From: Nitrospirota bacterium
Lineage (GTDB): Bacteria > Nitrospirota > UBA9217
Reading direction: 5' to 3'
DNA length: 64,000 nt
Assembly: GCA_963818475.1 (NCBI GenBank)
Contig: CAWFSF010000002.1
Location: 704,001-768,000, forward strand
The notes under the pieces were generated by a model. The model did no database searches and was not told the origin of the DNA. It was given only the letters and a program-made list of their open reading frames with translations. The translations under genes and the position numbers were made by a program. Shown here in pieces: positions 6,492-35,452 of the stretch. Position 1 is the stretch's first letter; the number at the start of each line of letters is the position of its first letter.

Positions 6492-7860
6492 ATGTTTGAA
6501 ACGGACACCATATGCGCAGTATCGACCGCGCCGGGACAGGGCGGGATCGGCATCATCCGCGTGAGCGGAGGAGATGCTATTGAGATAGCATCGCTAGTGT
6601 TCCGCTCACGCACCGGGCTCGCTCTTGCTGATGCAATGACCCATACGATCCATTACGGCCATGTCGTAGATGCAGCAGGTGAGATCATCGACGAAGCGCT
6701 GGTGAGCATCATGCGTGCGCCCGCAACGTATACGCGGGAGGATGTTGTCGAGATCAACTGTCATGGCGGCATGATGCCGCTCTGGCGCACCGTCGCCGTG
6801 CTTGTTGCTTCCGGAGCGCGCCAGGCAGAGCCAGGCGAGTTCACGAAGCGCGCGTTCTTGAACGGCAGGATAGACCTTACCCAGGCCGAGGCCGTGATGG
6901 ACATCATTTCGGCGCGCACGGAGCGGGCTCATCAGGCGGCGAACGAGCAGCTTTTAGGCGGCCTTTCGAAAGAGGTCACAACACTCCGCGACCGATTGAT
7001 CGGCATCATCGCATCGGTTGAAGCGGGCATCGATTTTCCCGAAGAAGATATTGAAACCCAGTCCGGTGGGCCCCTGGCGCGTGAGATCGCGGCGCTGGCC
7101 GAGGATGTCGCGTTGTTGCAGTCGAGTTTTGCCGCAGGCAGGATCCTGCGCGAAGGCTTCGCAACAGCGATCGTGGGCAAGCCGAACGTGGGCAAGTCGT
7201 CGCTCTTGAACGCTCTCCTGAAACAGGACCGGGCGATCGTGACCGATATCCCGGGCACGACGAGGGATATTATCGAGGAGTTCCTGAACATCGATGGCGT
7301 GCCGATCAGGATCGTGGATACCGCAGGCATACGACACAGCCATGATGTGGTGGAGCAGGAAGGTGTGCGCAGAAGCCATGCGGCCATCGAATCGGCCGAC
7401 ATCGTGCTCGTTGTGCTCGACAGCTCCGAACCGCTTTCCGACGAGGACCAGCAGGTGCTCAATGGCATCACTGAAAAGAAGGCTGTCCTGGTACTGAACA
7501 AAGCGGACAAGCCGAGGACAGCTTGAGCAGATAGCTTTGCCGCATCAGCAAGTCTCGCTCTCGTGCCGTACCGGTGAAGGGCTTTCGTTACTCAAGAACG
7601 CGATAGCTGCCATGGCCAAACAGGGTATGGTCATGCCGAAAGAGCATGCCTGGGCGGTGAACCAGCGGCATGTGTTCGCCCTTAACCAGGCGAAAGCAAG
7701 CTTGGACAAAGCGCTTGAGTCGGCTAGTGCCGCGCAATCGCCGGAGTTCATTGCTGTCGATCTCCGTGGCGCGCTGGACAGCCTGGGGCTGATTATCGGC
7801 GCGACCTATACGGATGATATCCTGGAGCGGATATTTAGTGAGTTCTGTATTGGGAAATAA
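6492..7860 (+). CDS. mnmE: tRNA modification GTPase MnmE, frameshift near 7520
   Basis: [34 protein letters not shown]; C-terminal FSEFCIGK in ORF 7537-7860. Confidence 0.95.
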
Positions 7861-7876
7861 GGGATGGGAACCGCTA

Positions 7877-8173
7877 ATGAACACTAATGAACGCGAATTG
7901 CTTTTGAAGAATGAGGTTTATCAAATTGTGGGCGCGGCTATGGAAGTATCGAATCAGTTGGGTTGCGGTTTTCTGGAGGCGGTTTATCAGGAGGCTTTGG
8001 GGATTGAACTTGTTGAGCGAAAGACTCGAATGAAAACGGTATGTCAATACAAAGGGGAACCGCTAACAGCCTCAACGCCAGATGTAAAAGAAATTATTAG
8101 CGTCCATTCGTGTGTATTCGCGGACAAATTCCCCGCTGCACGCAACGGCGAATTGCAAGTTAAACCTTTATGA
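7877..8173 (+). pseudogene. Truncated GxxExxY (PD-(D/E)XK-type) protein gene
   Basis: [29 protein letters not shown] carries GxxExxY; the C-terminal nuclease motifs are missing after YKGEPL; flanked by a 28-nt inverted repeat. Confidence 0.75.
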
Positions 8174-10047
8174 CCCTTCAAAAACCATACGACGTCATTG
8201 TCATCGGCGCAGGCCATGCCGGGTGCGAGGCCGCGCTTGCTGCCGCGCGCATGGGCGCTTCCACGCTCATGCTCACCATGAACCTGGACAGCATCGCGCT
8301 CATGTCCTGCAACCCCGCTATCGGCGGTCTGGCCAAGGGACATCTCGTGAAGGAGATCGATGCCCTGGGCGGGGAGATGGGGAAGATCATCGACCGGACC
8401 GGCATCCAGTTCCGCACGTTGAACAAGAGCAAGGGACCGGCCGTGCGCGGTACTCGGGCCCAGGCAGACAAGCAGCGCTACCGCATTGCTATGAAAGAGT
8501 CGGTCGAGAAGCAGCCGCAGCTTGATGTGAAGCAGGGGCTGGTTGAGAAGCTTCTTGTTGAGGACAACAGGATCGTTGGGGTTGAGACGAACATCGGCGT
8601 TCAGTACCTTTCTTCTACAGTGATCATCACCACCGGCACATTCTTAAAAGGCCTTATTCATATCGGGCTCGTGCACTATCCTTCAGGCAGGGCAGGGGAG
8701 TTCCCGTCAGTTGGGTTGTCTGACAGCTTGAGGGAATTGGGATTCGAGATCGCCAGGCTCAAGACCGGAACACCCGCGCGTTTGAACGGAAGGACCATTG
8801 ATTTTTCGACGATGAAGCCGCAGCCAGGAGACGACCCGGCGCCGTTCTTCTCATTCACCGAAAATATTCATCCACTCCCACAAGTACCCTGCTATTTAAC
8901 TTACACAAGCACAGTTACCCATGAAATAATACGCAATAACCTTGACCGTTCCCCACTTTATGCTGGAATCATAAAAGGTACCGGCCCGCGCTATTGCCCG
9001 TCCATTGAGGATAAGGTAATGCGGTTCTCTGACCGAGAGCGGCATCAGGTCTTTCTGGAACCAGAGGGGCTGGACACTGAAGAGTACTATGCCAACGGCG
9101 TATCAACGAGCCTGCCTTATGATGTGCAGTTGATGTTGTATCGCTCCATCGCAGGTCTCGAAGAAGTTGAGATCATGCGTCCAGCTTATGCTATTGAATA
9201 CGACTTCGCGCCGCCGACACAGATCAAGCATTCGCTCGAGACGAAGAAGATCACGGGCGTTTACTTTGCGGGCCAGATCAACGGGACCTCGGGGTATGAA
9301 GAAGCTGCAGCCCAGGGGCTGATGGCCGGCATCAATGCAGCGCTCTCCGTGCAGAAGCGTCCGCCGCTCATACTCTCCCGTGCCGAAGCATACATCGGTG
9401 TTCTTATCGATGACCTGGTGACGCGCGGGACACTGGAGCCTTACCGCATGTTCACTTCGCGCGCGGAGTACCGGCTGATCCTGCGCGAAGACAACGCTGA
9501 TCAACGGCTCCGCCTTCACGGGCATGAAGTCGGGCTGGTGTCTGACGATGTCTTTCAACAATATAAAGAAAAGCAGTCATCGATCGAGCAGGAGATTTCG
9601 CGGCTCAGAAAGATATGGATAAAACCCGGGCCGGACGTTAATGAACTGTTGCTCAAGAAGGGGACGGCAGCGCTTTCGGCGGAAGCGTCTCTTGACCAGC
9701 TGCTCAAACGGCCGGAACTGGGATACGAAGAGATCGAAAGAATAAGCCCGCCGGAAGAGCCGCTCGCAGCTGCGGCCGAAGAACAGGTCGAGATCCAGGT
9801 GAAGTACGAGGGCTACATTCAGCGCCAGCTCGAACAGGTGGAGCGCTTCGCTTCGCTCGAACAAAAAGAAGTTCCCGCTGACCTGGACTACGACGCCATA
9901 ACCGGGCTCGGCGCCGAGGTCAAACAGAAGCTGAAGCAGGTGCGGCCGGTTTCGCTCGGCCAGGCTTCGCGCATCTCGGGCGTTACCCCGGCGGCGATAT
10001 CGCTTTTGATGGTGGCGCTTGAGAAACGGAAGAGAGGAAGAGCATAG
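8170..10047 (+). CDS. mnmG: tRNA uridine-5-carboxymethylaminomethyl modification enzyme MnmG (GidA)
   Basis: [54 protein letters not shown]. Confidence 0.97.
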
Positions 10048-10205
10048 GGCAACAATGCGGAGCTTTTATCGCGAGAGCGCGAGGGACGCGAGGACGTCAA
10101 GAACAAGGAATGACTTTAGTTCAAGACTTCCTGCTTTCCTCGCGACCCTTGCGCCCTCGCGAGATCCAGGTTTTGTTTCTTATTTGAGCAGATTAGGATA
10201 TCACC

Positions 10206-26712: not shown

Positions 26713-27756
26713 TTGGATATTCTGAATAATAATAGTTTGCGGAAGACTCCAGTTTATGATGTCTACTGGCGTTTTGCAGCTGAGCGGCAGAATATATTCT
26801 TTAACCGGCTTCTTCAAGAAAAAGCACCTTGGACTATGGATCCCATAATGGCTAAATACAAGTTTACCAATACGTACAGAGTGTTGGATAGGGTGAGTCA
26901 GTTTCTGATTTCCAATATAATTAATCCCGATATGGAAAGTGATCTGTCGGATGAGGATAAGCTCTTCAGAATACTCTTATATAAAATCTTCAATAAGATT
27001 CAAACATGGCAATTGCTTGAGGACGCACTTGGGGAACTCTCATGGCGTAGGTATTCTTTCCAAGAGTACGACAGGGTCTTGAGTGCAGCTTTTCAAAATG
27101 GCACTATCTATTCTGCTGCATACATTATGGCATCCGGGAAGAGTGTATTCGGTTGCGAACGAAAGCATCAGAATCACCTGAAGTTACTCGAATACATGAT
27201 GAAGAGCAACATAACCATGAAAGTTGTATCGTCGCAGTCTATGGCTCAACTCTATAATGTGCTGATATCATATCCGCTTGTTGGGCCATTCTTAGCCTAC
27301 CAGTATGCAACAGACATAAATTATAGTTGGCTTACGGACTTTTCAGAGAAAGATTTCGTGGTTGCTGGGCCTGGTGCTCGCGATGGAATAGCAAAGTGTT
27401 TTTCTAATAGAGCATCCTATTCAGATGAAGTTATAATTCGCTCTATGATGGAAAATCAGAATGCTGAATTTGAACGTTTAGGGTTGGATTTCAAAAGTCT
27501 GTTCGGAAGGCCACTACAGCTAATCGACTGCCAGAACATATTTTGTGAAGTCGGAAAATATGCTCGCATCTCACATCCCGACATTAAGGACAAAAGTGGA
27601 CGATTGAAAATTAAGCAGCTCTATCGCACTTCTGGAGCCATCCTCCCACCGTCTTTTCCAGAAAAATGGAGGCTATCAACTGCCGTACACACATTTACTA
27701 ATACTCACCTAGTTCAAGCAAGACTTCGGGGGGGATATTCACTAGAGTTAGGGTGA
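26713..27756 (+). CDS. 5-hmdU DNA kinase helical domain / aGPT-PPlase clade 1-like protein
   Basis: YWRFAAERQ, PWTxDP..YKFTN.YR..DRVSQ, IYSAAY, GPFLAYQ..TD, GPGA.DG, DCQN.FCE..KY. Confidence 0.75.
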   Translation: MDILNNNSLRKTPVYDVYWRFAAERQNIFFNRLLQEKAPWTMDPIMAKYKFTNTYRVLDRVSQFLISNIINPDMESDLSDEDKLFRILLYKIFNKIQTWQLLEDALGELSWRRYSFQEYDRVLSAAFQNGTIYSAAYIMASGKSVFGCERKHQNHLKLLEYMMKSNITMKVVSSQSMAQLYNVLISYPLVGPFLAYQYATDINYSWLTDFSEKDFVVAGPGARDGIAKCFSNRASYSDEVIIRSMMENQNAEFERLGLDFKSLFGRPLQLIDCQNIFCEVGKYARISHPDIKDKSGRLKIKQLYRTSGAILPPSFPEKWRLSTAVHTFTNTHLVQARLRGGYSLELG

Positions 27757-27919
27757 GAAATGCCGACCATGTGATTTAATCAAGGACATGATGGCCATTA
27801 TCGGTAGTGATGCGCGTGAATTACATGGATATTTGGCCTGTTATCTCGTTTATTTCAAGCGACGATTTTAACCTGAAAAGGGGCTACGCAGGCATGGCTC
27901 GAGTATCGCGAGGATAAAA

Positions 27920-28417
27920 ATGAGCACAACTAATACAAAGAACGTTTTCATTAGTCATCACCACGAAGACGATGCACACGTTGACAAGTTGACAAATTTG
28001 CTTAGCAAGAAAGGATTTAACATCAGAAATAGTTCCATCCGAGCAAAACCAGCGAATCAGGAGCGTTTAGAAAAGGGACTTATCAAGGAGGCAGTGCTCA
28101 AACGTTTGCTCCGGATGAAGATATCCTGGGCAGGGTCGGTTATAGTCCTAGTTGGTAAGGAGACACACTCGCGCCCCTGGGTAAACTGGGAAATCGATCA
28201 GGCGCATAAGCAGGGGAAGAACATTGTAGGCATTTATGAGCATGGACTCAAGGACAAGGTTGATCTCCCGCCTTTTTTAGAAAAGTACAGAACGTCGCAA
28301 GTTGTTGGTTGGGATTCGGATGCTATTATCGACGCGATTGAAGGAAAATCAGTTTTTCAGAATCCCGATGGGACACCTTCTCCTCGGAATGACGGACCTC
28401 ACATAACGTGCAAGTAG
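27920..28417 (+). CDS. TIR-domain protein (ThsB / MTH538-like)
   Basis: VFISH, VIVLVG..T..RPWVNWEI with the catalytic-position Glu, IVGI. Confidence 0.82.
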   Translation: MSTTNTKNVFISHHHEDDAHVDKLTNLLSKKGFNIRNSSIRAKPANQERLEKGLIKEAVLKRLLRMKISWAGSVIVLVGKETHSRPWVNWEIDQAHKQGKNIVGIYEHGLKDKVDLPPFLEKYRTSQVVGWDSDAIIDAIEGKSVFQNPDGTPSPRNDGPHITCK

Positions 28418-29067
28418 AATCCACAAAATATTTGTACATCTATGTTGTAGATCGAGATTTCGGGTTCGCTCCAAACCCGTTCCATGGGTACTGCACTTTG
28501 GCTACATGTAAGCCAGACATCAGGAGAACAGCTCATGTTGGCGACTGGGTTATGGGCGTTGGCGGACGACGTTTGAATGCGACGGGAAGATGCATATACT
28601 TGATGAAAGTGTCCGAGATTCTTACCTTTGATGAATATTGGTCAGATAAAAGGTTTTGGGTCAAAAAGCCCATCCGAAACGGAAGCCTTGTGATGATGGT
28701 CGGTGACAATGTTTACCATCGGAATAATATCGAAGAGGACTGGACACAAGAAGACTCACACCATAGCAACGAGGATGGCTCTATCAACCATGAGAATGTA
28801 AGGATAGACACAAAATCTATTAATGTCCTTATTTCACATCACTTCTACTATTTCGGTAGCGTCGCGCCAGTAGTCGATTTGTCAACTATTGGCTATAAGA
28901 ATGGAATAGGCCATCGGAAAAAGTCACTGGAAGATTCTAATGTAGCTGTTCTTGTGAAGAAGATTGAAGATCAGTTCAGAAGAGATAGGAATACGGTTAT
29001 TGCTGACCCCATCAATTTTGAGCATGCTTCAAAGCGAGTTGATCAGGGTACTGGGAAAATTAGATGA
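28408..29067 (+). CDS. Nucleotide modification-associated domain 2 (Nmad2)-like protein
   Basis: YVVDRDFGFAPNPFHGYCTLATCKP.IR...GDW, GDN.Y, VLIS..FYYFG; overlaps the TIR stop. Confidence 0.75.
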   Translation: MQVESTKYLYIYVVDRDFGFAPNPFHGYCTLATCKPDIRRTAHVGDWVMGVGGRRLNATGRCIYLMKVSEILTFDEYWSDKRFWVKKPIRNGSLVMMVGDNVYHRNNIEEDWTQEDSHHSNEDGSINHENVRIDTKSINVLISHHFYYFGSVAPVVDLSTIGYKNGIGHRKKSLEDSNVAVLVKKIEDQFRRDRNTVIADPINFEHASKRVDQGTGKIR

Positions 29068-29109
29068 GTATATCGAGAGGAGCATGTATTCTGAAAGGAG
29101 GAATTATCC

Positions 29110-29748
29110 TTGCCGAATCTTATCAAAATAGCTTTTGATTATACAAAGCCGTCGATGACTATCGAATCCGACTGGTTATTGTTCATTGTTTTATTAGTAA
29201 TCATTCTGCTGGTTGTTATATTGCGTAAGAAGGGATTCTTGTCATGGTTTAACCGATATGATATGGAAGTCGAGATATCAGGAGCACCGAAAATAAAGGT
29301 CAAGGTAGAAAGAAATAATGAAAATCTATTCATTGCCAATCGAATATACATAGAACTGACAACTAGGAAGGCAGCAATTCCTTTTGACGAAGATAATGAT
29401 GTAATCGCAGAAGTTTATGACTCATGGTATAAGTTGTTTGGAATCATTCGTGAAGAAATAAAGAGCGTACCTGGTAGATATCTAAAAGACCACGATCCTA
29501 CTTCTGCCCTAATCGGCCTCACTACAAAAATACTGAATGAGGGATTAAGGCCTCATTTGACACTATATCAGGCAAGGTTTAGAAAATGGTACGAAGAAGA
29601 AAAGGAGCGGCCAGAAAATAAACTATTATCACCTCATGAGATTCAGAGGAAATATCCCGATTACAAAAAATTAGTTGATTCGATCAAACAAGTTAATAAA
29701 ACCCTGACTGAGTTTGCAACCGAGTTGAACAAATTGATAAAAGGTTAG
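29110..29748 (+). CDS. Single-TM protein of unknown function (candidate effector)
   Basis: Strong N-terminal TM helix; helical domain IELTTRK...EVYDSWY...LNEGLRPHLT; RBS AAAGGAGG. Confidence 0.7.
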   Translation: MPNLIKIAFDYTKPSMTIESDWLLFIVLLVIILLVVILRKKGFLSWFNRYDMEVEISGAPKIKVKVERNNENLFIANRIYIELTTRKAAIPFDEDNDVIAEVYDSWYKLFGIIREEIKSVPGRYLKDHDPTSALIGLTTKILNEGLRPHLTLYQARFRKWYEEEKERPENKLLSPHEIQRKYPDYKKLVDSIKQVNKTLTEFATELNKLIKG

Positions 29749-29834: not shown

Positions 29835-31400
29835 TCAAGTGATAATTTTTGGAAAATAAGTTTGATATTCAGTGATTTTATCTTTGAGCTTGCTTTGATC
29901 TTCCTCAATAAACGGTAAGATCTTCAGAAATTTTTCATAGGGAATTGCAATACCATTGATTGTAACGACGGGATGACTGCCTGGCTTCGCTTCATATTTG
30001 TACGTTGTTAACGTTTCATCCTTAACCGTAAATTCTAGCGTAAATTTTTTTTCTGTTGAATCGACCCCTATCCTCAATATTTTATTGAACATTTCGACTT
30101 TTGCTTTAAAGAACCCCACCAGTGACTTTTGCTTATATTGGGCGTCCCTTTGTTTGAATTCATAGTCAATAGAAACCATTGTTTCAGAAAACTCATTTAG
30201 TGTAACTGATTCTCCTGGATCGTGAAATGCCATAAGATCAAATGTCGGCCGCCCCCAAAACTGAATTTCATCTACAATCAATAAAAGAAAAGAGAACGTA
30301 TTTGGTTTGAAATGATAAATTTCGTGGCAGGTGTGAGATGCTATCGATCTTAATATTTCTCTTCGGATTATGAATTGACGAGCTTCTTCTTCACCTTTTA
30401 ATGTATCGATATTATCAAAATCAAAGTTGGTTTCAAGAAAGTAAACTAAATTTTTTGCAAGAACTAAGCAACTTATTAAACCATGATCAAATCGTTCGAA
30501 TGACCTTGAAAACTTCAGATAATACTTGGCTTGAATGTGTGTACTAAAAGCGTTTTGAGTTTTAGTAAATAAGCGTTTAATAACTCCATTGTCACTTTTC
30601 TTAACACGCGAACTCAAGTATTTTAAAATTGCATCATTAATAAACTGGTTTTGTTGCGGGAATGCAAAGGAAAACTCGTCGAGTTTTGTTTTTGCAAAAA
30701 ACTTCATCATTTTTTTTAAGTTATCATTTATTTTATCTACCATTCCCAATGGATAACCCAAATCGTGTGTTAATGCTATTATGCACCATATAGCATCCTC
30801 CTCACCTTCAAACAAAACACCATTGTTTCGTCGAGATATATTAAGTTTCTTTTCGGCATCTTGACCTTCTGTTATATCAATATTTGTAATGTGGGGCTTT
30901 ATGTCTTTGTGATCGAAAATATCAATTGGAAATTTATCATCGAAAGAATTAAAAAGTAGGAATTGACCTGTAAGCCAGACTCTAATTAAATGGTAGACAT
31001 GATCTCTATAAAACTGTTCCGCGCCATATAATAACCTTTCAAATTCAATAAAAGTCTTAAAATAATCTTTAAGAGAATAAACACCTAAAGAGCCTTCACT
31101 AATTATTCCATAGGCAGATTTAAGGTCTGGTGGTCTTTTATTAGGTGGGAACTCTGTTAAATCATGCCATTTTAGATATTTAATAGCGTCGATCAAAAGA
31201 CGTTCCCAAAGATTTAAGACAATAATTGGGTCTATCTTTGACGTATCAAAAATATCTTTTAGCTGGGTTTTATCATTTGTATCAGGAAATTTACTTATAA
31301 TTTTTACGGTTTCTTCGGATAAAAATTGAATTCTCCCTTGCTCCTTTTTTAAAAAATCAATAAGAAACTTATCGTCAAGTTTTTGATTAAGTGGAGCCAT
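29835..31400 (-). CDS. HD-superfamily phosphohydrolase-like protein
   Basis: YRDHVYH..RV, ALTHDLGYP, DHG, IASH, DEIQFWGR. Confidence 0.7.
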   Translation of the reverse strand: MAPLNQKLDDKFLIDFLKKEQGRIQFLSEETVKIISKFPDTNDKTQLKDIFDTSKIDPIIVLNLWERLLIDAIKYLKWHDLTEFPPNKRPPDLKSAYGIISEGSLGVYSLKDYFKTFIEFERLLYGAEQFYRDHVYHLIRVWLTGQFLLFNSFDDKFPIDIFDHKDIKPHITNIDITEGQDAEKKLNISRRNNGVLFEGEEDAIWCIIALTHDLGYPLGMVDKINDNLKKMMKFFAKTKLDEFSFAFPQQNQFINDAILKYLSSRVKKSDNGVIKRLFTKTQNAFSTHIQAKYYLKFSRSFERFDHGLISCLVLAKNLVYFLETNFDFDNIDTLKGEEEARQFIIRREILRSIASHTCHEIYHFKPNTFSFLLLIVDEIQFWGRPTFDLMAFHDPGESVTLNEFSETMVSIDYEFKQRDAQYKQKSLVGFFKAKVEMFNKILRIGVDSTEKKFTLEFTVKDETLTTYKYEAKPGSHPVVTINGIAIPYEKFLKILPFIEEDQSKLKDKITEYQTYFPKIIT

Positions 31401-31504
31401 AATCGTTATCTCCGAAAAATACGACAACCACAATGTCGTTGGTCAAAGCTCTATCGAAAACCACAAGCAATAATTTAGACCAGCATATTTACTTTTTAAA
31501 AAAG

Positions 31505-32590
31505 CTATGAGGCCGCCTGTTTGCGCGGAGGAGTTACTTGAATTTGATTTGTTTTTTGGAGGGGGCAAAGTGGATCTGGCCCATGGTAAATGCTGCCAAA
31601 TTTATAATAGCGTTGCGCGACACATCGGCCATTGCAGTAGTTTGATTCGGAGCAACTATTACAACCACTCACCATTGTTACATCAAGATCACGTAGTTGT
31701 TCTAATTCTGAACTATGATGCCATATAGTCTCTAGGGATTGCTTATTTATATTAGCCAACCCAAACTTAGGTGCATGCTTAAAAGCAGGACAAGGTACGG
31801 CTGTGCCATCATAGCTGATTAGTAGAGTAGAAATTCCAGCTTTACATTGAACAGGCGTTATCGTTCTATCCACCATCGAACAGAAATTCATCGGACACCC
31901 TGTTCTAATCTGAACAAAGTCACGAAGCTCGTTTTTAATGGCGACAACTTCATTTATGAATTGATTGAATTCTGTTTGATTTAACTCAAGCCGTTGTTTA
32001 TTGGTCTTACCTCGTCCTTGGCCTACAAATCTCAAGACTGCCACTTCATCTACTTTTAATTCCTTACATAACTCGGCCACCGCTCGAAAATCGGCATAGT
32101 TCAACTTCATCGGAACAAAGTGTACACCTACCCATAAACCGGCATCTTTTGCATTTTTTATGCTGCTTATGACACTTGTATAACTGCCCTTAGCCCTGCT
32201 GACTTTTTCGTGAATTTGGGCAGTCGAACCCTCCAAGTTAAAAATAATCCGGTCTAAGTGCAGGGCCTTAAATTGTATTAGCTGCTCCTTGGAAATGCCG
32301 CTGTTCGACTTTCCTAAAAAACCAGAAGTATAAAGTCTAACTTTGAATTGACTAGATGCTTCTTGGATTAACGTGTTTATATCAGGATGGAGCAACGGCT
32401 CTCCGCCCGATAGTTCAATAACATGCGTACCTAGGAGCTTTGCATCGTGAAGGATTTCTCTAAATTTGGGCAGGTCGATTTTTGAGGAGTTACTTATTGT
32501 AGATGAGGATGAACAATGCACGCAGTTCATCATGCATTTTCCAGTTACTTCGATACATAATTCTTCCAGGCCAGTTATTAGTTTTGCCAT
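31505..32590 (-). CDS. Radical SAM / SPASM-domain protein
   Basis: CMMNCVHC, SGGEPL, CKAG...PCP, CNSC...C.GRC...DPLCP. Confidence 0.9.
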   Translation of the reverse strand: MAKLITGLEELCIEVTGKCMMNCVHCSSSSTISNSSKIDLPKFREILHDAKLLGTHVIELSGGEPLLHPDINTLIQEASSQFKVRLYTSGFLGKSNSGISKEQLIQFKALHLDRIIFNLEGSTAQIHEKVSRAKGSYTSVISSIKNAKDAGLWVGVHFVPMKLNYADFRAVAELCKELKVDEVAVLRFVGQGRGKTNKQRLELNQTEFNQFINEVVAIKNELRDFVQIRTGCPMNFCSMVDRTITPVQCKAGISTLLISYDGTAVPCPAFKHAPKFGLANINKQSLETIWHHSSELEQLRDLDVTMVSGCNSCSESNYCNGRCVAQRYYKFGSIYHGPDPLCPLQKTNQIQVTPPRKQAAS

Positions 32591-32599
32591 TTTATCAGC

Positions 32600-33070
32600 T
32601 CATAATATTTGTCGCCTAGATGCTTTTACTCTCAGTGCCTTATCGGGTATTTCAAACTTGTTAAGTGTTAAAGATCTAACCAATGACTTTGTTTCCGCAG
32701 TCGTGATGAGAGAGTACTGTCTAGTGACGGGATCGTAGTCTCGGCTGCCTTCAATTACATATGGAACATTTCCGATAACGTAGAACGATTTTTCACTCAA
32801 AGGAGATTTTACTTCAGGAAAATCTTTTTTAAATTCCTGAACGGCCCTCTTAATTCTGTACGTACTGGCACCGGCCTCATTGAGTCTAAGAATAGTTTTG
32901 ATAGTTACAAGATCAGTGAAAGAATATCTATAATGACCGCCCTTGCTCTTTTTGCTGAGATCAGGGGATAAAATCCCTATTTTTCTCCAGTATAGCAGAA
33001 CCTTCCTGTTGATACCAAGAATGGCCTCTATATGACTGCTTGTGAAGTATAAATTGATGTTTTCTTCCAT
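32600..33070 (-). CDS. MerR-type HTH protein
   Basis: ILGINRKVLLYWRKIGILSP...YRYSFTDL; ends 9 nt before the radical SAM start; start codon uncertain. Confidence 0.8.
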   Translation of the reverse strand: MEENINLYFTSSHIEAILGINRKVLLYWRKIGILSPDLSKKSKGGHYRYSFTDLVTIKTILRLNEAGASTYRIKRAVQEFKKDFPEVKSPLSEKSFYVIGNVPYVIEGSRDYDPVTRQYSLITTAETKSLVRSLTLNKFEIPDKALRVKASRRQIL

Positions 33071-33276
33071 GGTTATAGTTTCCCTATTGTTATCATTTTT
33101 AGACGATTTTGTCAACTATATTTCTGTTTTTCTTACGATAATGTCTAAAAAATAATTAACACAATAAATACACTTGAGAGCTCATCAAATTGTTAAAATT
33201 GAATTGTAATGCTAGCGTGATCTGAATATACTCAAGTTGATGAAAGCATTCTGAAACAATGCGAAGACTCAGGGAC

Positions 33277-34960
33277 ATCCTATAGCCCCCTTGTCAAGTG
33301 CAACTTGCTTTCGCTGAAATTCCAATACGATAACTGACGGTTTTTCTTGAAGACGCACTTCACCCATGCGTCCTGTTCGGACATCAGCATTTTCTTCGAC
33401 GACTTTCTCACGTAAAGCGAACTTGCTCTCTAAGCGTTATAAATATCCGGCGTGCCGTTGCCGCCAAGCATCCCTTATCCAGATTCTCAAGTTCTATGAG
33501 AGGCCCTGTATTGTCCCTCACGAGGTCATTCGCCTCAACGTTGTGTCCCGGGCTCTCTACGTCGAAATTCAATTTTCAGTCCGGCCTATGCCTTACTACC
33601 CCCCTGGCTGAGGTATTTCGGGTCGAATGTTTCTTTTTTCTTCATGAGCGTCCAAGCGATGATCAACAGTTTTGCTGCCAGTTTCACCCGCATCTTGGTG
33701 CCAATCCCTTTTTCCCGCTCCCGTCCCTTTATCTTATTCGTGTGGTAGACGATGAACTCTTTATAGTTGAGCGAACTGATGATCGCCGCCTGATACAGTG
33801 CGTAGCGGAGATCGGATTTTCCGTGTTTTGAGATCACAGGCGTGGAGCTGTTTGACGTTTTTCCGCTTCGGCTCGCGCACAGATCGAATCCGGCCATCTT
33901 CAATACCTGCTTACCGTTCGTAAAGCGTTCGGGATCGCCGATGGCAGCCAGGACCTTGGAAGACACATCCGGACCGAACCCGGGAATCATGAGAAGGAAC
34001 GAGTACTCCGGAAACTTCAGGCAAATATCCTCGATCTTATCTTCAACGGTCTTGATCGTCTCCCGGACTTGGTGAAGTCCCATCACCATGATCTGTGCTT
34101 CCACGGACACCGCTTCTCCGACGATGCAGCCAATGGACTGCTTGGCAGCCCGCCATATCTGCGTAAGCCGCCGCTGCTGCGCCATATTCACCTTGCCGGG
34201 CGATACCGTCCGGCAGAACTCGTCGTATTCCATAAGGGAGATAAGCGAGGGATCCATGCATCGCTGGACCACGTTCAGACTCGCTACCGAACCGAAGTGC
34301 TGGTCCATTTCCGGGAAGTACTGGGCCAGAAGCTGATTGCGGATGCGGACCCGGAGACCGTGCTCCTCTTTTTTGAGCCGTTTCTTTAAGGACAACAGCC
34401 CCCGCAAGGACCGCAGATCCTCCCCCGGGCAGTCGTAGTACAGGCATTTTCCCAGGGAGATTAGGTCGGCGACATTCGCGGCATCTTTGGTGTCGTGCTT
34501 ATCCCATCGGCCATCCATAAGCTCACGGTTCTTTGACGTGGCTGCAGCAGATACCAGAACAACCAAGTGTCCGCCCTTGATGAGATATTCTCCCAGGGGT
34601 TTATGATAATTGGCCGTGGGTTCCAGTCCGAAAACTACTTTGCGCAGGCCATGCTGCACCTTGAGCGCGTCCGTTTGGATCAGGAGCTTTTGGAAACCAT
34701 CGTACGTATTATCAAAGAACATCCCTTTGTGCAGTGTCCTACCGGTCGCGGTGCCAAAGAAGGCATTATGCCGTTCCTTGGCGACATCAAGTCCTACGAC
34801 CAAATACTGCGTCGAACCGCGAATCTCTTTCTTGAATTGACAAAATTCCTGCAGCCTGATACCATCTGAATCATTCATGAGAGGCCTCCTGTGCGAGAAT
34901 TTAGTTTCGGGATAAACTTATTCTTAGCAGGAGGCTTCTCTTTTTGCTAGCTTATAAGAT
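33277..34960 (-). mobile_element. IS110-family (IS1111-like) insertion sequence, ends inferred
   Basis: Transposase with short 5' and ~300 bp 3' non-coding ends; outward -35 at one end and a -10-like hexamer at the other; shared AT dinucleotide at both inferred ends. Confidence 0.65.
33586..34878 (-). CDS. IS110-family recombinase/transposase
   Basis: DEDD RuvC-like motifs GLDVAK, LEPT, KHDTKDA; IPGFG; SRSGK; LRYALY. Confidence 0.93.
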   Translation of the reverse strand: MNDSDGIRLQEFCQFKKEIRGSTQYLVVGLDVAKERHNAFFGTATGRTLHKGMFFDNTYDGFQKLLIQTDALKVQHGLRKVVFGLEPTANYHKPLGEYLIKGGHLVVLVSAAATSKNRELMDGRWDKHDTKDAANVADLISLGKCLYYDCPGEDLRSLRGLLSLKKRLKKEEHGLRVRIRNQLLAQYFPEMDQHFGSVASLNVVQRCMDPSLISLMEYDEFCRTVSPGKVNMAQQRRLTQIWRAAKQSIGCIVGEAVSVEAQIMVMGLHQVRETIKTVEDKIEDICLKFPEYSFLLMIPGFGPDVSSKVLAAIGDPERFTNGKQVLKMAGFDLCASRSGKTSNSSTPVISKHGKSDLRYALYQAAIISSLNYKEFIVYHTNKIKGREREKGIGTKMRVKLAAKLLIIAWTLMKKKETFDPKYLSQGGSKA

Positions 34961-35452
34961 AATTTTCTTTCAGCTATACTGATCGTTTGATCTATTCGCT
35001 TAATGATATATAACGTTGACACGCGACGAACCCTAATATACGACTCAGTGCGACGTTCATGCGCAAGTTACAGCTACAATATCACACCTCTTCCAGTCGA
35101 TCATGTCTGCACAGTTGTAGGTGAAGCTCGGAGTACCTGGATTACTGATGACGCGACTAATTCCGTCCATCTAATAACGGCAGCTTGAATCGTCGGGAAT
35201 CGGAGCGAGCACGATGAGTAGCCCACGCACCATCATCTTTACGCAAGACAGCCCGTTCTTCTAAATGGTCACGGCATTCCTGGCGGCAACCGCGGGAATA
35301 GGGTCCGTTTTCGAAAAGGATGCCTTCAAATATGAAGCACAGCAAGCCCTGACCTCAAACCAGCCAAATTATCAAACCCCTTGACAACCTGCACCCGGTA
35401 TAGGTATATATAGTCTGCTTCAAAAGCACAACAACACAGAACGAGGTGACCC

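Follow-up and report, generated by a model that had tools for sequence, protein, structure and literature searches.

Among the 42 systems validated in Escherichia coli with DefensePredictor (DeWeirdt, Mahoney, Laub; preprint 2025, Science 2026; PMC13092281, 10.1101/2025.01.08.631726), the newly validated defence domains include 5-hydroxymethyluracil (hmU) kinase and thymidylate synthase; the legend of Figure 3C in that paper lists a system of thymidylate synthase (TS), deoxynucleoside monophosphate kinase (dNMPk), 5-hydroxymethyldeoxyuridine kinase (5hmdUk) and NMAD that protects against phages, and the paper offers no mechanism for it. The predicted systems of the same source also list aGPT-Pplase, MazG, MazG-C, dUTPase and an NMAD domain, with reference to Burroughs et al. 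2015 (PMC13092281); a literature search on DefensePredictor and thymidylate synthase returned nothing beyond this paper and its preprint. Thoeris, the second point of comparison, is described with types I-XI and 29 putative types, with many effectors that are transmembrane proteins or of unknown function (Yirmiya et al., 10.64898/2025.12.03.692087), and the thymidine hypermodification clusters of phages, with 5-HMUDK, aGPT-Pplase/AADT, radical SAM and PLP genes, form the third (Lee et al., PMC5889632, PMC8989533). Here these are compared with a locus at 26.7-33.1 kb of a 64-kb stretch of contig CAWFSF010000002.1 from a Nitrospirota bacterium. The whole stretch is called the window, and its coordinates are marked W where needed; L-numbers denote fetched loci of relatives, such as L002, with positions of their own. 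The locus is probably one horizontally acquired mosaic of a widespread, nucleotide-centred, defence-type family, not a self-contained four-gene system. Its gene order and alignments indicate that the left arm (HMUDK_hel, TIR, Nmad2 and the membrane protein TM212) descends from a dNMP-kinase–HMUDK_hel–TS-like–TIR–Nmad2–X cassette, and that the right arm (MerR–radical SAM/SPASM–HD-like) comprises the genes that in other loci occur with HMUDK_hel lacking kinase and TS. The features are as follows:

26713-27756, plus strand: HMUDK_hel (aGPT-Pplase clade 1) protein, 347 aa, here gene 1; Pfam PF18723, E 2.4e-104, residues 12-292
27752-27919, plus strand: 3' end of a thymidylate-synthase-like gene (some 65 final codons), frameshifted; blastn and tblastn
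27920-28417, plus strand: ThsB-type TIR protein, 165 aa; Pfam PF08937, 3.5e-23; PADLOC ThsB PDLC00418, 1.3e-58
28408-29067, plus strand: Nmad2 protein, 219 aa; Pfam PF18753, 4.4e-69
29110-29748, plus strand: TM212, 212 aa; no Pfam, PADLOC or NCBIfam family
29835-31433, minus strand: HD532, 532 aa, motif HDLGYP; no Pfam match; Atlas: HD in 16% of the cluster at 0.93, HD-CE at 0.88
31505-32590, minus strand: radical SAM/SPASM enzyme, 361 aa; Pfam PF04055, 2.3e-20, and SPASM, 3.1e-10
32600-33115, minus strand: MerR-family regulator, first gene of the minus-strand operon; Pfam MerR_1, 5.1e-10

The first-pass annotation of the window had singled out the plus-strand genes as a new four-gene anti-phage module. 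The observation behind it is real: the four open reading frames (ORFs; 26713-27756, 27920-28417, 28408-29067, 29110-29748) are intact and co-oriented and lie in an AT-rich island, with a GC content of 0.32-0.45 from about 26.5 to 33.5 kb vs. 0.55-0.64 in the flanks; the TIR and Nmad2 ORFs overlap by 10 nt; and profile searches confirm HMUDK_hel (PF18723), ThsB_TIR (PF08937) and Nmad2 (PF18753). It is mis-scoped and partly mis-named, however, and the limit of four genes in particular does not stand, given the recurrence of the MerR–radical SAM–HD-like operon in the same set (L065, L071). In the defence-system search the TIR was the only one of the four plus-strand proteins with a PADLOC match (ThsB model, 1.3e-58); NCBIfam matched none of the four. 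PADLOC-DB 2.0.0, whose models were used alongside the Pfam and NCBIfam libraries, contains no model matching HMUDK_hel, the TS-like protein, a ~280-aa protein of the relatives (see below), MazG_C, Nmad2, TM212 or the HD-like protein, and neither gene 1, Nmad2 and TM212 nor the HD-like profile had a match in a PDB sequence search.

The E. coli system, which was compared with the window locus by domain names only, resembles it in its 5hmdUk (PF18723-type) and NMAD domains, and its TS and dNMP kinase occur in the window's relatives L001-L004; all four domains are present in L002-L004, whereas the window has the helical 5hmdUk domain and Nmad2, retains its TS as a remnant and lacks a dNMP kinase. 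The window differs in adding TIR, TM212, radical SAM and HD-like proteins, the Nmad family being likened by name only; the word TIR occurs 0 times in the main text of the DefensePredictor paper (PMC13092281). The locus is not wholly new, since this related system, as described in that text, has already been validated as anti-phage; the earlier claim of novelty is abandoned to that extent. The match to a described system is a partial one: a related system is known, and the window adds the TIR and TM212 and lacks the dNMP kinase.

The naming of gene 1 as a kinase-like protein requires correction. In phages, the 5-hmdU DNA kinases are P-loop proteins, and aG/PT-PPlase occurs as a distinct protein that adopts a helix-hairpin-helix glycosylase-like fold; SP10 gp186, described in these sources as the only such fusion, carries the kinase in its N-terminal and aG/PT-PPlase1 in its C-terminal part (PMC8989533, PMC5889632). 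In gene 1, HMUDK_hel is the only Pfam domain above cut-off, covering residues 12-292 of 347, and a P-loop kinase domain was not found; judged by its domain content, gene 1 is no kinase. It shares 78% amino acid identity with its homologs in L001-L003 and is the sole HMUDK_hel copy in the host genome, whose completeness of 91% underlies every genome-wide absence reported here. The final ~13 residues are unlike the C-termini of the relatives because the ORF crosses a deletion junction. The relatives' kinase gene has no counterpart in the window, its sole match in the genome being the housekeeping tmk, and the genome contains 0 MazG_C.

Genes 1 and 2 are separated by a spacer of 163 nt (27757-27919), which holds the remnant of the TS-like gene. 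The window aligns with its closest relatives at ~75-77% nucleotide identity in two blocks: in blastn, W26728-27707 corresponds to L002 8016-8998 and W27734-29060 to L002 9856-11188, and the ~0.86 kb skipped between the blocks is most of the L002 TS-like gene (9032-10051; PF00303, 2.3e-19). L003 gives a similar picture; its homology begins 12 nt upstream of the gene-1 start, and its kinase gene lies at 104-754. In tblastn, residues 279-316 of the L002 TS match W27752-27850 (53%, E 2.8e-4); the window frame CDLIKDMMAIIGSDA matches CELIKDMMAVIGSDA, and then, in another frame, AWLEYREDKNEHN, ending in a stop, matches AWLEYWEGKNERH, likewise ending in a stop. The gene order of the closest relatives is dNMP-kinase–HMUDK_hel–TS–TIR–Nmad2. 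No intact TS-like gene was found within the window, and the PF00303 profile gave 0 matches in the genome (positive in 10 of 14 control genomes); the ADDT profile (aGPT-Pplase2; PF18724) gave 0 matches in the genome, where no control genome was positive either, and none among the island ORFs. The alignments indicate that a TS-like gene was once present and was later deleted, and that the kinase gene has been lost too. The earlier observation that the window lacks a hydroxymethylase, an ADDT and a ThsA gene holds for intact genes; yet the absence of a hydroxymethylase is secondary because the TS-like gene was deleted and its remnant remains, and the conclusion once drawn from this absence, that the locus only senses modified DNA, loses its ground.

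The wider family was surveyed in a gene-1-seeded set of 27 genome loci (50-78% identity to gene 1), in which neighbour domains were assigned by Pfam on representatives:

Helix-turn-helix (HTH): 10 of 27 loci
ImmA/IrrE M78 peptidase: 12 of 27 loci
Protein of ~280 aa without a name, annotated as 'thymidylate synthase' on a RefSeq plasmid: 13 of 27 loci
DCD/dUTPase-like: 7 of 27 loci
P-loop kinase: 15 of 27 loci
TS-like: 11 of 27 loci
Radical SAM/SPASM, in the TS position: 2 of 27 loci
MazG–MazG_C: 12 of 27 loci
ThsB-type TIR: 10 of 27 loci
Nmad2: 12 of 27 loci
TIR-SLOG: 4 of 27 loci

The P-loop domain (Thymidylate_kin) is fused to HMUDK_hel or located just upstream in 15 loci, and a P-loop kinase or MazG_C is found near HMUDK_hel in 25 of the 27, the exceptions being L005, at a contig edge, and L013; the window has neither. 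The family, whose loci occur in plasmid and integrase contexts and include extra TIR and TIR-SLOG genes among their neighbours, seems most often to take the form of a cassette of HTH, ImmA, the ~280-aa protein, kinase/HMUDK_hel and MazG or TS. In L058, on an Allocoleopsis conjugative plasmid (NC_019739.1), the ~280-aa protein, which has no Pfam match, lies between the ImmA/IrrE peptidase and kinase–HMUDK_hel, followed by MazG. ADDT was found in none of the ORFs scanned, the loci of relatives included. Since relatives encode their own TS-like or radical SAM enzyme, the family presumably makes a modified nucleotide, and possibly also reads one.

This survey bears on the possibility that the four plus-strand genes are an intact, self-sufficient system with no modified base of its own, in which the kinase-like protein would recognise or mark hmU-type phage DNA, fire the TIR and kill through the transmembrane protein. 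The four ORFs are intact and the TIR glutamate is present; a PUA-like Nmad2 would suit a modified-base reader, and TM212 is TIR-associated (see below); furthermore, HMUDK_hel–TIR–Nmad2 trios lacking kinase and TS occur in L008, L011, L018 and L019. All four of these trios, however, have MazG_C nearby, 25 of the 27 relatives have nucleotide-kinase-type partners, a kinase domain is missing from gene 1, the TS gene was lost by deletion and not originally absent, and the radical SAM/HD-like operon co-occurs with the family elsewhere, so that we regard the self-sufficient system as very improbable. The genes do stay together in other genomes, in that TIR–Nmad2 accompanies HMUDK_hel in 10 of 27 loci and TM212 recurs next to TIR genes or HMUDK modules in 13 of 19 metagenome loci; the recurrent set is larger than four genes.

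The minus-strand operon (29835-33115, convergent with the plus-strand genes) belongs, by its recurrence beside HMUDK_hel, to the same set. In L065, HMUDK_hel (49% identity) lies tail-to-tail with homologs of HD532 (54%), the radical SAM enzyme (51%) and MerR (42%), the latter in the same position as in the window; in L071, TIR, Nmad2, HMUDK_hel, radical SAM and HD-like genes form a co-oriented, overlapping row beside an integrase; and L040 has the order HMUDK_hel–TS–Nmad1–HD-like–TIR–Nmad2–TM212. The seven genes of the locus correspond to the L071 set plus TM212 and MerR. HD532, with homologs in L040, L065 and L071, is probably an HD-domain phosphohydrolase; H145, H223-D224, H317, H367 and D388 are invariant among four sequences. 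Homologs of the radical SAM enzyme directly follow HMUDK_hel in L016 and L022 (in both after a kinase–HMUDK_hel fusion) and in L071. Its NCBIfam matches (PqqE and NirJ types) were all under cut-off, and the PADLOC models of prokaryotic viperin (pVip) matched nothing but its radical-SAM core (7e-16 and 5e-15), the protein carrying a SPASM domain. A further locus, L061 (genome G381), combines HD-like and radical SAM genes, the former in two pieces.

Whether such a locus still works has to be weighed against decay. The whole of it could be a non-functional relic whose ORFs remain open only because the damage is recent: the TS remnant is frameshifted and the kinase gene missing, an upstream ribbon-helix-helix-like ORF is interrupted by an in-frame TAG, the edge carries an IS110 element, promoter-like motifs in the locus number 21 vs. 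19.5 in shuffled sequences, i.e., not above expectation, and related copies are broken (HMUDK_hel in L065, the HD-like gene of L061), although the damage in L065 and L061 could be either real decay or assembly error. On the other hand, all seven ORFs remain intact, the window proteins keep the shared residue at each invariant column of the alignments A1-A4, and the gene content matches the L071 operon. A relic is possible on this evidence, and we consider it the less probable outcome by a clear measure. As the right arm is the set of kinase-less, TS-less HMUDK_hel loci, the present gene content appears, with slightly better than even confidence, to represent a recurrent radical-SAM-type configuration that may still work.

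The TIR protein carries the expected glutamate. E91, within the motif WVNWEI, aligns with the WVxYEI motif of the ThsB chains 6lhy and 9b7d and is found in every one of the 15 TIRs aligned, which upholds the WEI glutamate noted in the first-pass annotation; we take this position to be the catalytic glutamate of the TIR NADase/cyclase site. The gene is the only ThsB_TIR gene of the host genome; ThsA was not found in the window, nor LD_cluster2 in the genome. The comparison with Thoeris thus concerns a ThsB-type TIR with its catalytic glutamate and an adjacent membrane protein that could be the effector, reminiscent of the transmembrane effectors of types II, VI and VII. A Thoeris effector of described type (SIR2-SLOG, Macro/Macro-TM, caspase-like, DUF2270, DUF6650, SLATT, CMP hydrolase and others) was not recognised, TM212 and Nmad2 matching no such Pfam or PADLOC model. 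The window TIR differs in being translationally coupled to a PUA-like Nmad2 among nucleotide-modifying genes. The available text of Yirmiya et al. contains none of the terms Nmad, kinase, thymidylate and PUA, and its Figure 1C or Table S1 may already list TM212 as a putative effector (10.64898/2025.12.03.692087).

SIR2 genes on another contig of the host genome, considered as remote ThsA candidates, were rejected as not ThsA-type; these two SIR2-domain genes on contig C6 (L067, L068) have PDC-S25/LmuA-like and Aga/SIR2-type models as their best PADLOC matches, one of them adjoins an LmuB/PDC-S06-like ATPase gene, and they are likely separate defence loci unrelated to the window TIR. In alignment A3, TIRs that precede Nmad2 end in a conserved cysteine as the last or second-last residue (…TC, …SCQ); among distant TM212-linked TIRs, those of L042 and L038 have no terminal cysteine, and that of L037 (…TCE) has one. 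One neighbouring TIR matches Nuc_deoxyrib_tr weakly (2e-4).

Nmad2 is a recurrent partner of this TIR. Wherever both genes occur among the 27 genome loci they are adjacent, TIR first (10 loci); they also adjoin each other in 3 of 19 loci of a TM212-seeded metagenome set and in 3 of 9 loci of an Nmad2-seeded set from a viral collection. The pair stands next to HMUDK_hel in 10 of the 27 genome loci and also in L040, L043 and L071. Complex prediction for TIR and Nmad2 gave 0.79, 0.64 and 0.00 in three runs, a median of 0.64 vs. 0.28 for the best control; the mark used for this score is reached by 58 of 80 solved complexes and by 2 of 110 mismatched pairs. The predictions support binding of the TIR to Nmad2, through an interface placed at TIR residues 96-101 and 120-127 and Nmad2 residues 84-96 and 195-198. 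The structural model of Nmad2 (pLDDT 84.5, pTM 0.85) suggests, with moderate confidence, a PUA-like (ASCH/EVE/YTH) fold: in VIA-align the top 22 consecutive rows are PUA-like (YTH, ASCH, EVE, McrB-N, VcaM4I, DrmA-N; Z 8.1-5.0, next row 4.0), with root-mean-square deviations of 3.1-5.1 Å over 80-144 aligned residues, and in Foldseek ZmASCH ranks best (E 0.014), followed by DrmA, YTH, McrB-N and THYN1 at E >= 0.014. Many polar residues are invariant in the Nmad2 family, including C29, C34, H119 and D134; Nmad2 has 6197 homologs. The role proposed for Nmad2 would parallel that of the PUA-like sensor in PUA-Cal-HAD, which detects a modified deoxynucleotide (m6-dAMP) in anti-phage immunity; the effectors there are calcineurin-CE and HAD, with no TIR, and the likeness is one of published description (10.64898/2026.01.15.699771). 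Within the phylum, Nmad2 is patchily distributed, being present in 8 of 401 genomes but in none of the 63 of the family or the 5 of the genus, and it had 0 matches in 50,697 phage records. A literature search found no relevant paper on Nmad2 and none pairing aGPT-Pplase1 with TIR; the papers that define aGPT-Pplase and Nmad lay outside its coverage and may pre-empt part of this account. A second search, on MazG-C, TIR, TS and conflict systems, gave nothing relevant among the matches listed.

TM212 represents a large family without a Pfam family or an informative name: 923 homologs were found, many of them 60-70% identical across distant taxa. The model (pLDDT 82.7) consists of a short N-terminal beta-hairpin, one transmembrane helix (22-40), a disordered linker and a four-helix bundle (70-211). 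In 10 of the 19 metagenome loci (L030, L033, L035-L039 and L042-L044) a ThsB_TIR gene directly adjoins the TM212 homolog; in L040 Nmad2 lies between TIR and TM212, and in L032 and L034 the homolog adjoins kinase–HMUDK_hel–TS or MazG_C–HMUDK_hel. This gives 13 of 19 loci in which a TM212 homolog neighbours a TIR gene or an HMUDK module; the remaining 6 are short contigs or, in one case, a spurious match (L048). From this gene context we read TM212 as a TIR-associated membrane protein and candidate effector. Of the families considered for it, DUF6650 (Atlas score 0.77, 13% of one cluster) was rejected, with 0 of 34 TM212 family members matching at E <= 1; SLATT likewise matched 0 of 34 at E <= 1, and the KinB_sensor four-helix bundle gave weak matches in 15 of 34 (best E 4.6e-4). 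In L038 and L039, two tandem ThsB-type TIR genes are followed by a TM212 homolog and a further TIR_2 gene; this multi-TIR cluster around TM212 has no HMUDK_hel or Nmad2 nearby.

The phage hypermodification clusters resemble the locus in PF18723 and in the TS-like and radical SAM genes of its neighbourhood, and the fusion of P-loop kinase and PF18723 in relatives mirrors SP10 gp186 (Lee et al., PMC5889632, PMC8989533). The window differs in having no P-loop kinase, ADDT/aGPT-Pplase2 was not found, and identity to phage proteins is <=38%; the radical SAM enzyme is at best <=25% identical to phage radical SAM proteins over full length, or 28% on a match of 59% length, and 0 of 13 matches came from SP10 or M6. 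One may nevertheless ask whether mobile elements use the family to hypermodify DNA or nucleotides, for anti-restriction or as an epigenetic mark, as phages do, and not for immunity; the TIR-fold protein would then be a nucleotide-processing enzyme of that pathway. PF18723 occurs in 435 phage records, the neighbouring TS-like, DCD, MazG and kinase genes resemble the hmU-type pathways of phages, homologs of gene 1 are found on 22 plasmid records (<=54% identity) and loci lie near integrases, one homolog bears the RefSeq name 'putative DNA base hypermodification protein', and the Nuc_deoxyrib_tr match of one neighbouring TIR would fit as well. Such a pathway seems unlikely, however, in view of the missing ADDT in genome and scanned ORFs, the <=38% identity of the phage homologs of gene 1, the absence of Nmad2 from the phage records, the ThsB type of the TIRs with their NADase glutamate, and the phage protection conferred by the related E. 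coli system. We instead consider it likely, and with good confidence, that the family is anti-phage; a defence role is made plausible by the ThsB model match, the HTH and ImmA/IrrE neighbours, the extra TIRs, the patchy spread of Nmad2, the plasmid and integrase contexts and the E. coli system.

If the locus is a mosaic member of an anti-phage family, its products could act in sequence. A base-modifying enzyme (radical SAM here, TS-like in relatives) would make or process a modified pyrimidine nucleotide, together with a phosphate-handling enzyme, HD-like here and a P-loop kinase or MazG/MazG_C in relatives; the HMUDK_hel domain would engage the modified pyrimidine, as a nucleotide or within DNA; TIR-bound, PUA-like Nmad2 would sense the modified base or nucleotide and gate the TIR; the TIR (E91) would turn NAD+ into a signal by cleavage, or deplete it; and TM212, as a membrane-anchored four-helix-bundle protein, would be the Thoeris-like effector that halts the infected cell. 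The most specific form of this proposal, in which Nmad2 gates the TIR by reading a self-made modified pyrimidine as a licensing signal, and not a phage protein, and in which TM212 stands for a new class of Thoeris-type membrane effectors, is doubtful at present. If true, TIR signalling would be licensed by a self-made non-canonical nucleotide or DNA mark, produced on demand by radical SAM or TS-like enzymes along with those of HD, kinase or MazG type. The family joins two active fields, TIR/Thoeris signalling and nucleotide- or DNA-base-modifying immunity. It also offers experimental handles: the interface predicted for the conserved TIR–Nmad2 pair, a putative modified-base reader in the PUA-like Nmad2, a large unnamed family of TIR-associated membrane proteins, and interchangeable arms of TS plus kinase or radical SAM plus HD-like genes. 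Since the window locus is a mosaic with a deleted gene, a complete relative of the L002-L004 or L071 type would be the better object of study.

As a caveat, a series of observations counts against this interpretation of the locus. For the locus and its close relatives alike, function was read from genes and their neighbourhoods, and the link to the E. coli system rests on domain names, as far as that source goes. The TS remnant and the missing kinase may mean that the left arm is dead; in L065 (genome G321) HMUDK_hel is split by a 1-nt frameshift (7693-8701), and the radical SAM enzyme is only 32-34% identical to its counterparts in L016, L022 and L071, part of which may be generic SPASM similarity. 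For Nmad2, Foldseek gave nothing at E <= 0.001, and Z values of <= 8.1 fall within the range that is common for unmatched models (7-8) according to the tool; one of the three complex runs scored 0.00, and the runs, based on self-built alignments, shared at least 0% of contacts at a partner pLDDT of at least 85. Elsewhere in the phylum, 8 other Nmad2 loci, spread over 7 genomes, lack both TIR and HMUDK_hel out to ~1.5 kb, so that Nmad2 needs no TIR. Fold searches with TM212 found generic bundles only (Foldseek best E 0.044; VIA best Z 10.9, designed bundles and ClyA, below the bar for helical proteins), and the flanks of the locus are without other known defence genes.

The surroundings of the locus consist of housekeeping genes, with purL, DUF493, cytochrome c7, RlpA-like, Dabb and RluD genes on the left and HtpG on the right. 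No flanking direct repeats were found that would define the boundaries of the island, and no tRNA gene was found between 20 and 40 kb in the window. Among the sequencing runs listed, none of RNA carries the sequence, and the best share in a DNA run was 0.08. The right boundary of the low-GC island is marked by an insertion sequence, with 28-nt imperfect inverted arms at 33454-33481 and 35266-35293:

33454-35293, minus strand: IS110-family insertion sequence, transposase 33586-34878; Pfam and NCBIfam IS110 matches (NCBIfam IS110 RNA-guided transposase, 8e-45)

On the opposite side, at W26376-26500, a short ribbon-helix-helix/CopG-like frame (…SISLPDKVAHELDRFAKS) runs into an in-frame TAG and then resumes (GRNKSDVVKE…); this frame, on the left border of the island, probably represents an antitoxin or regulator gene that has decayed. 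To the right of HtpG and outside the low-GC island, W37614-38201 encodes a member of the cytidine/deoxycytidylate deaminase family, probably a housekeeping gene.

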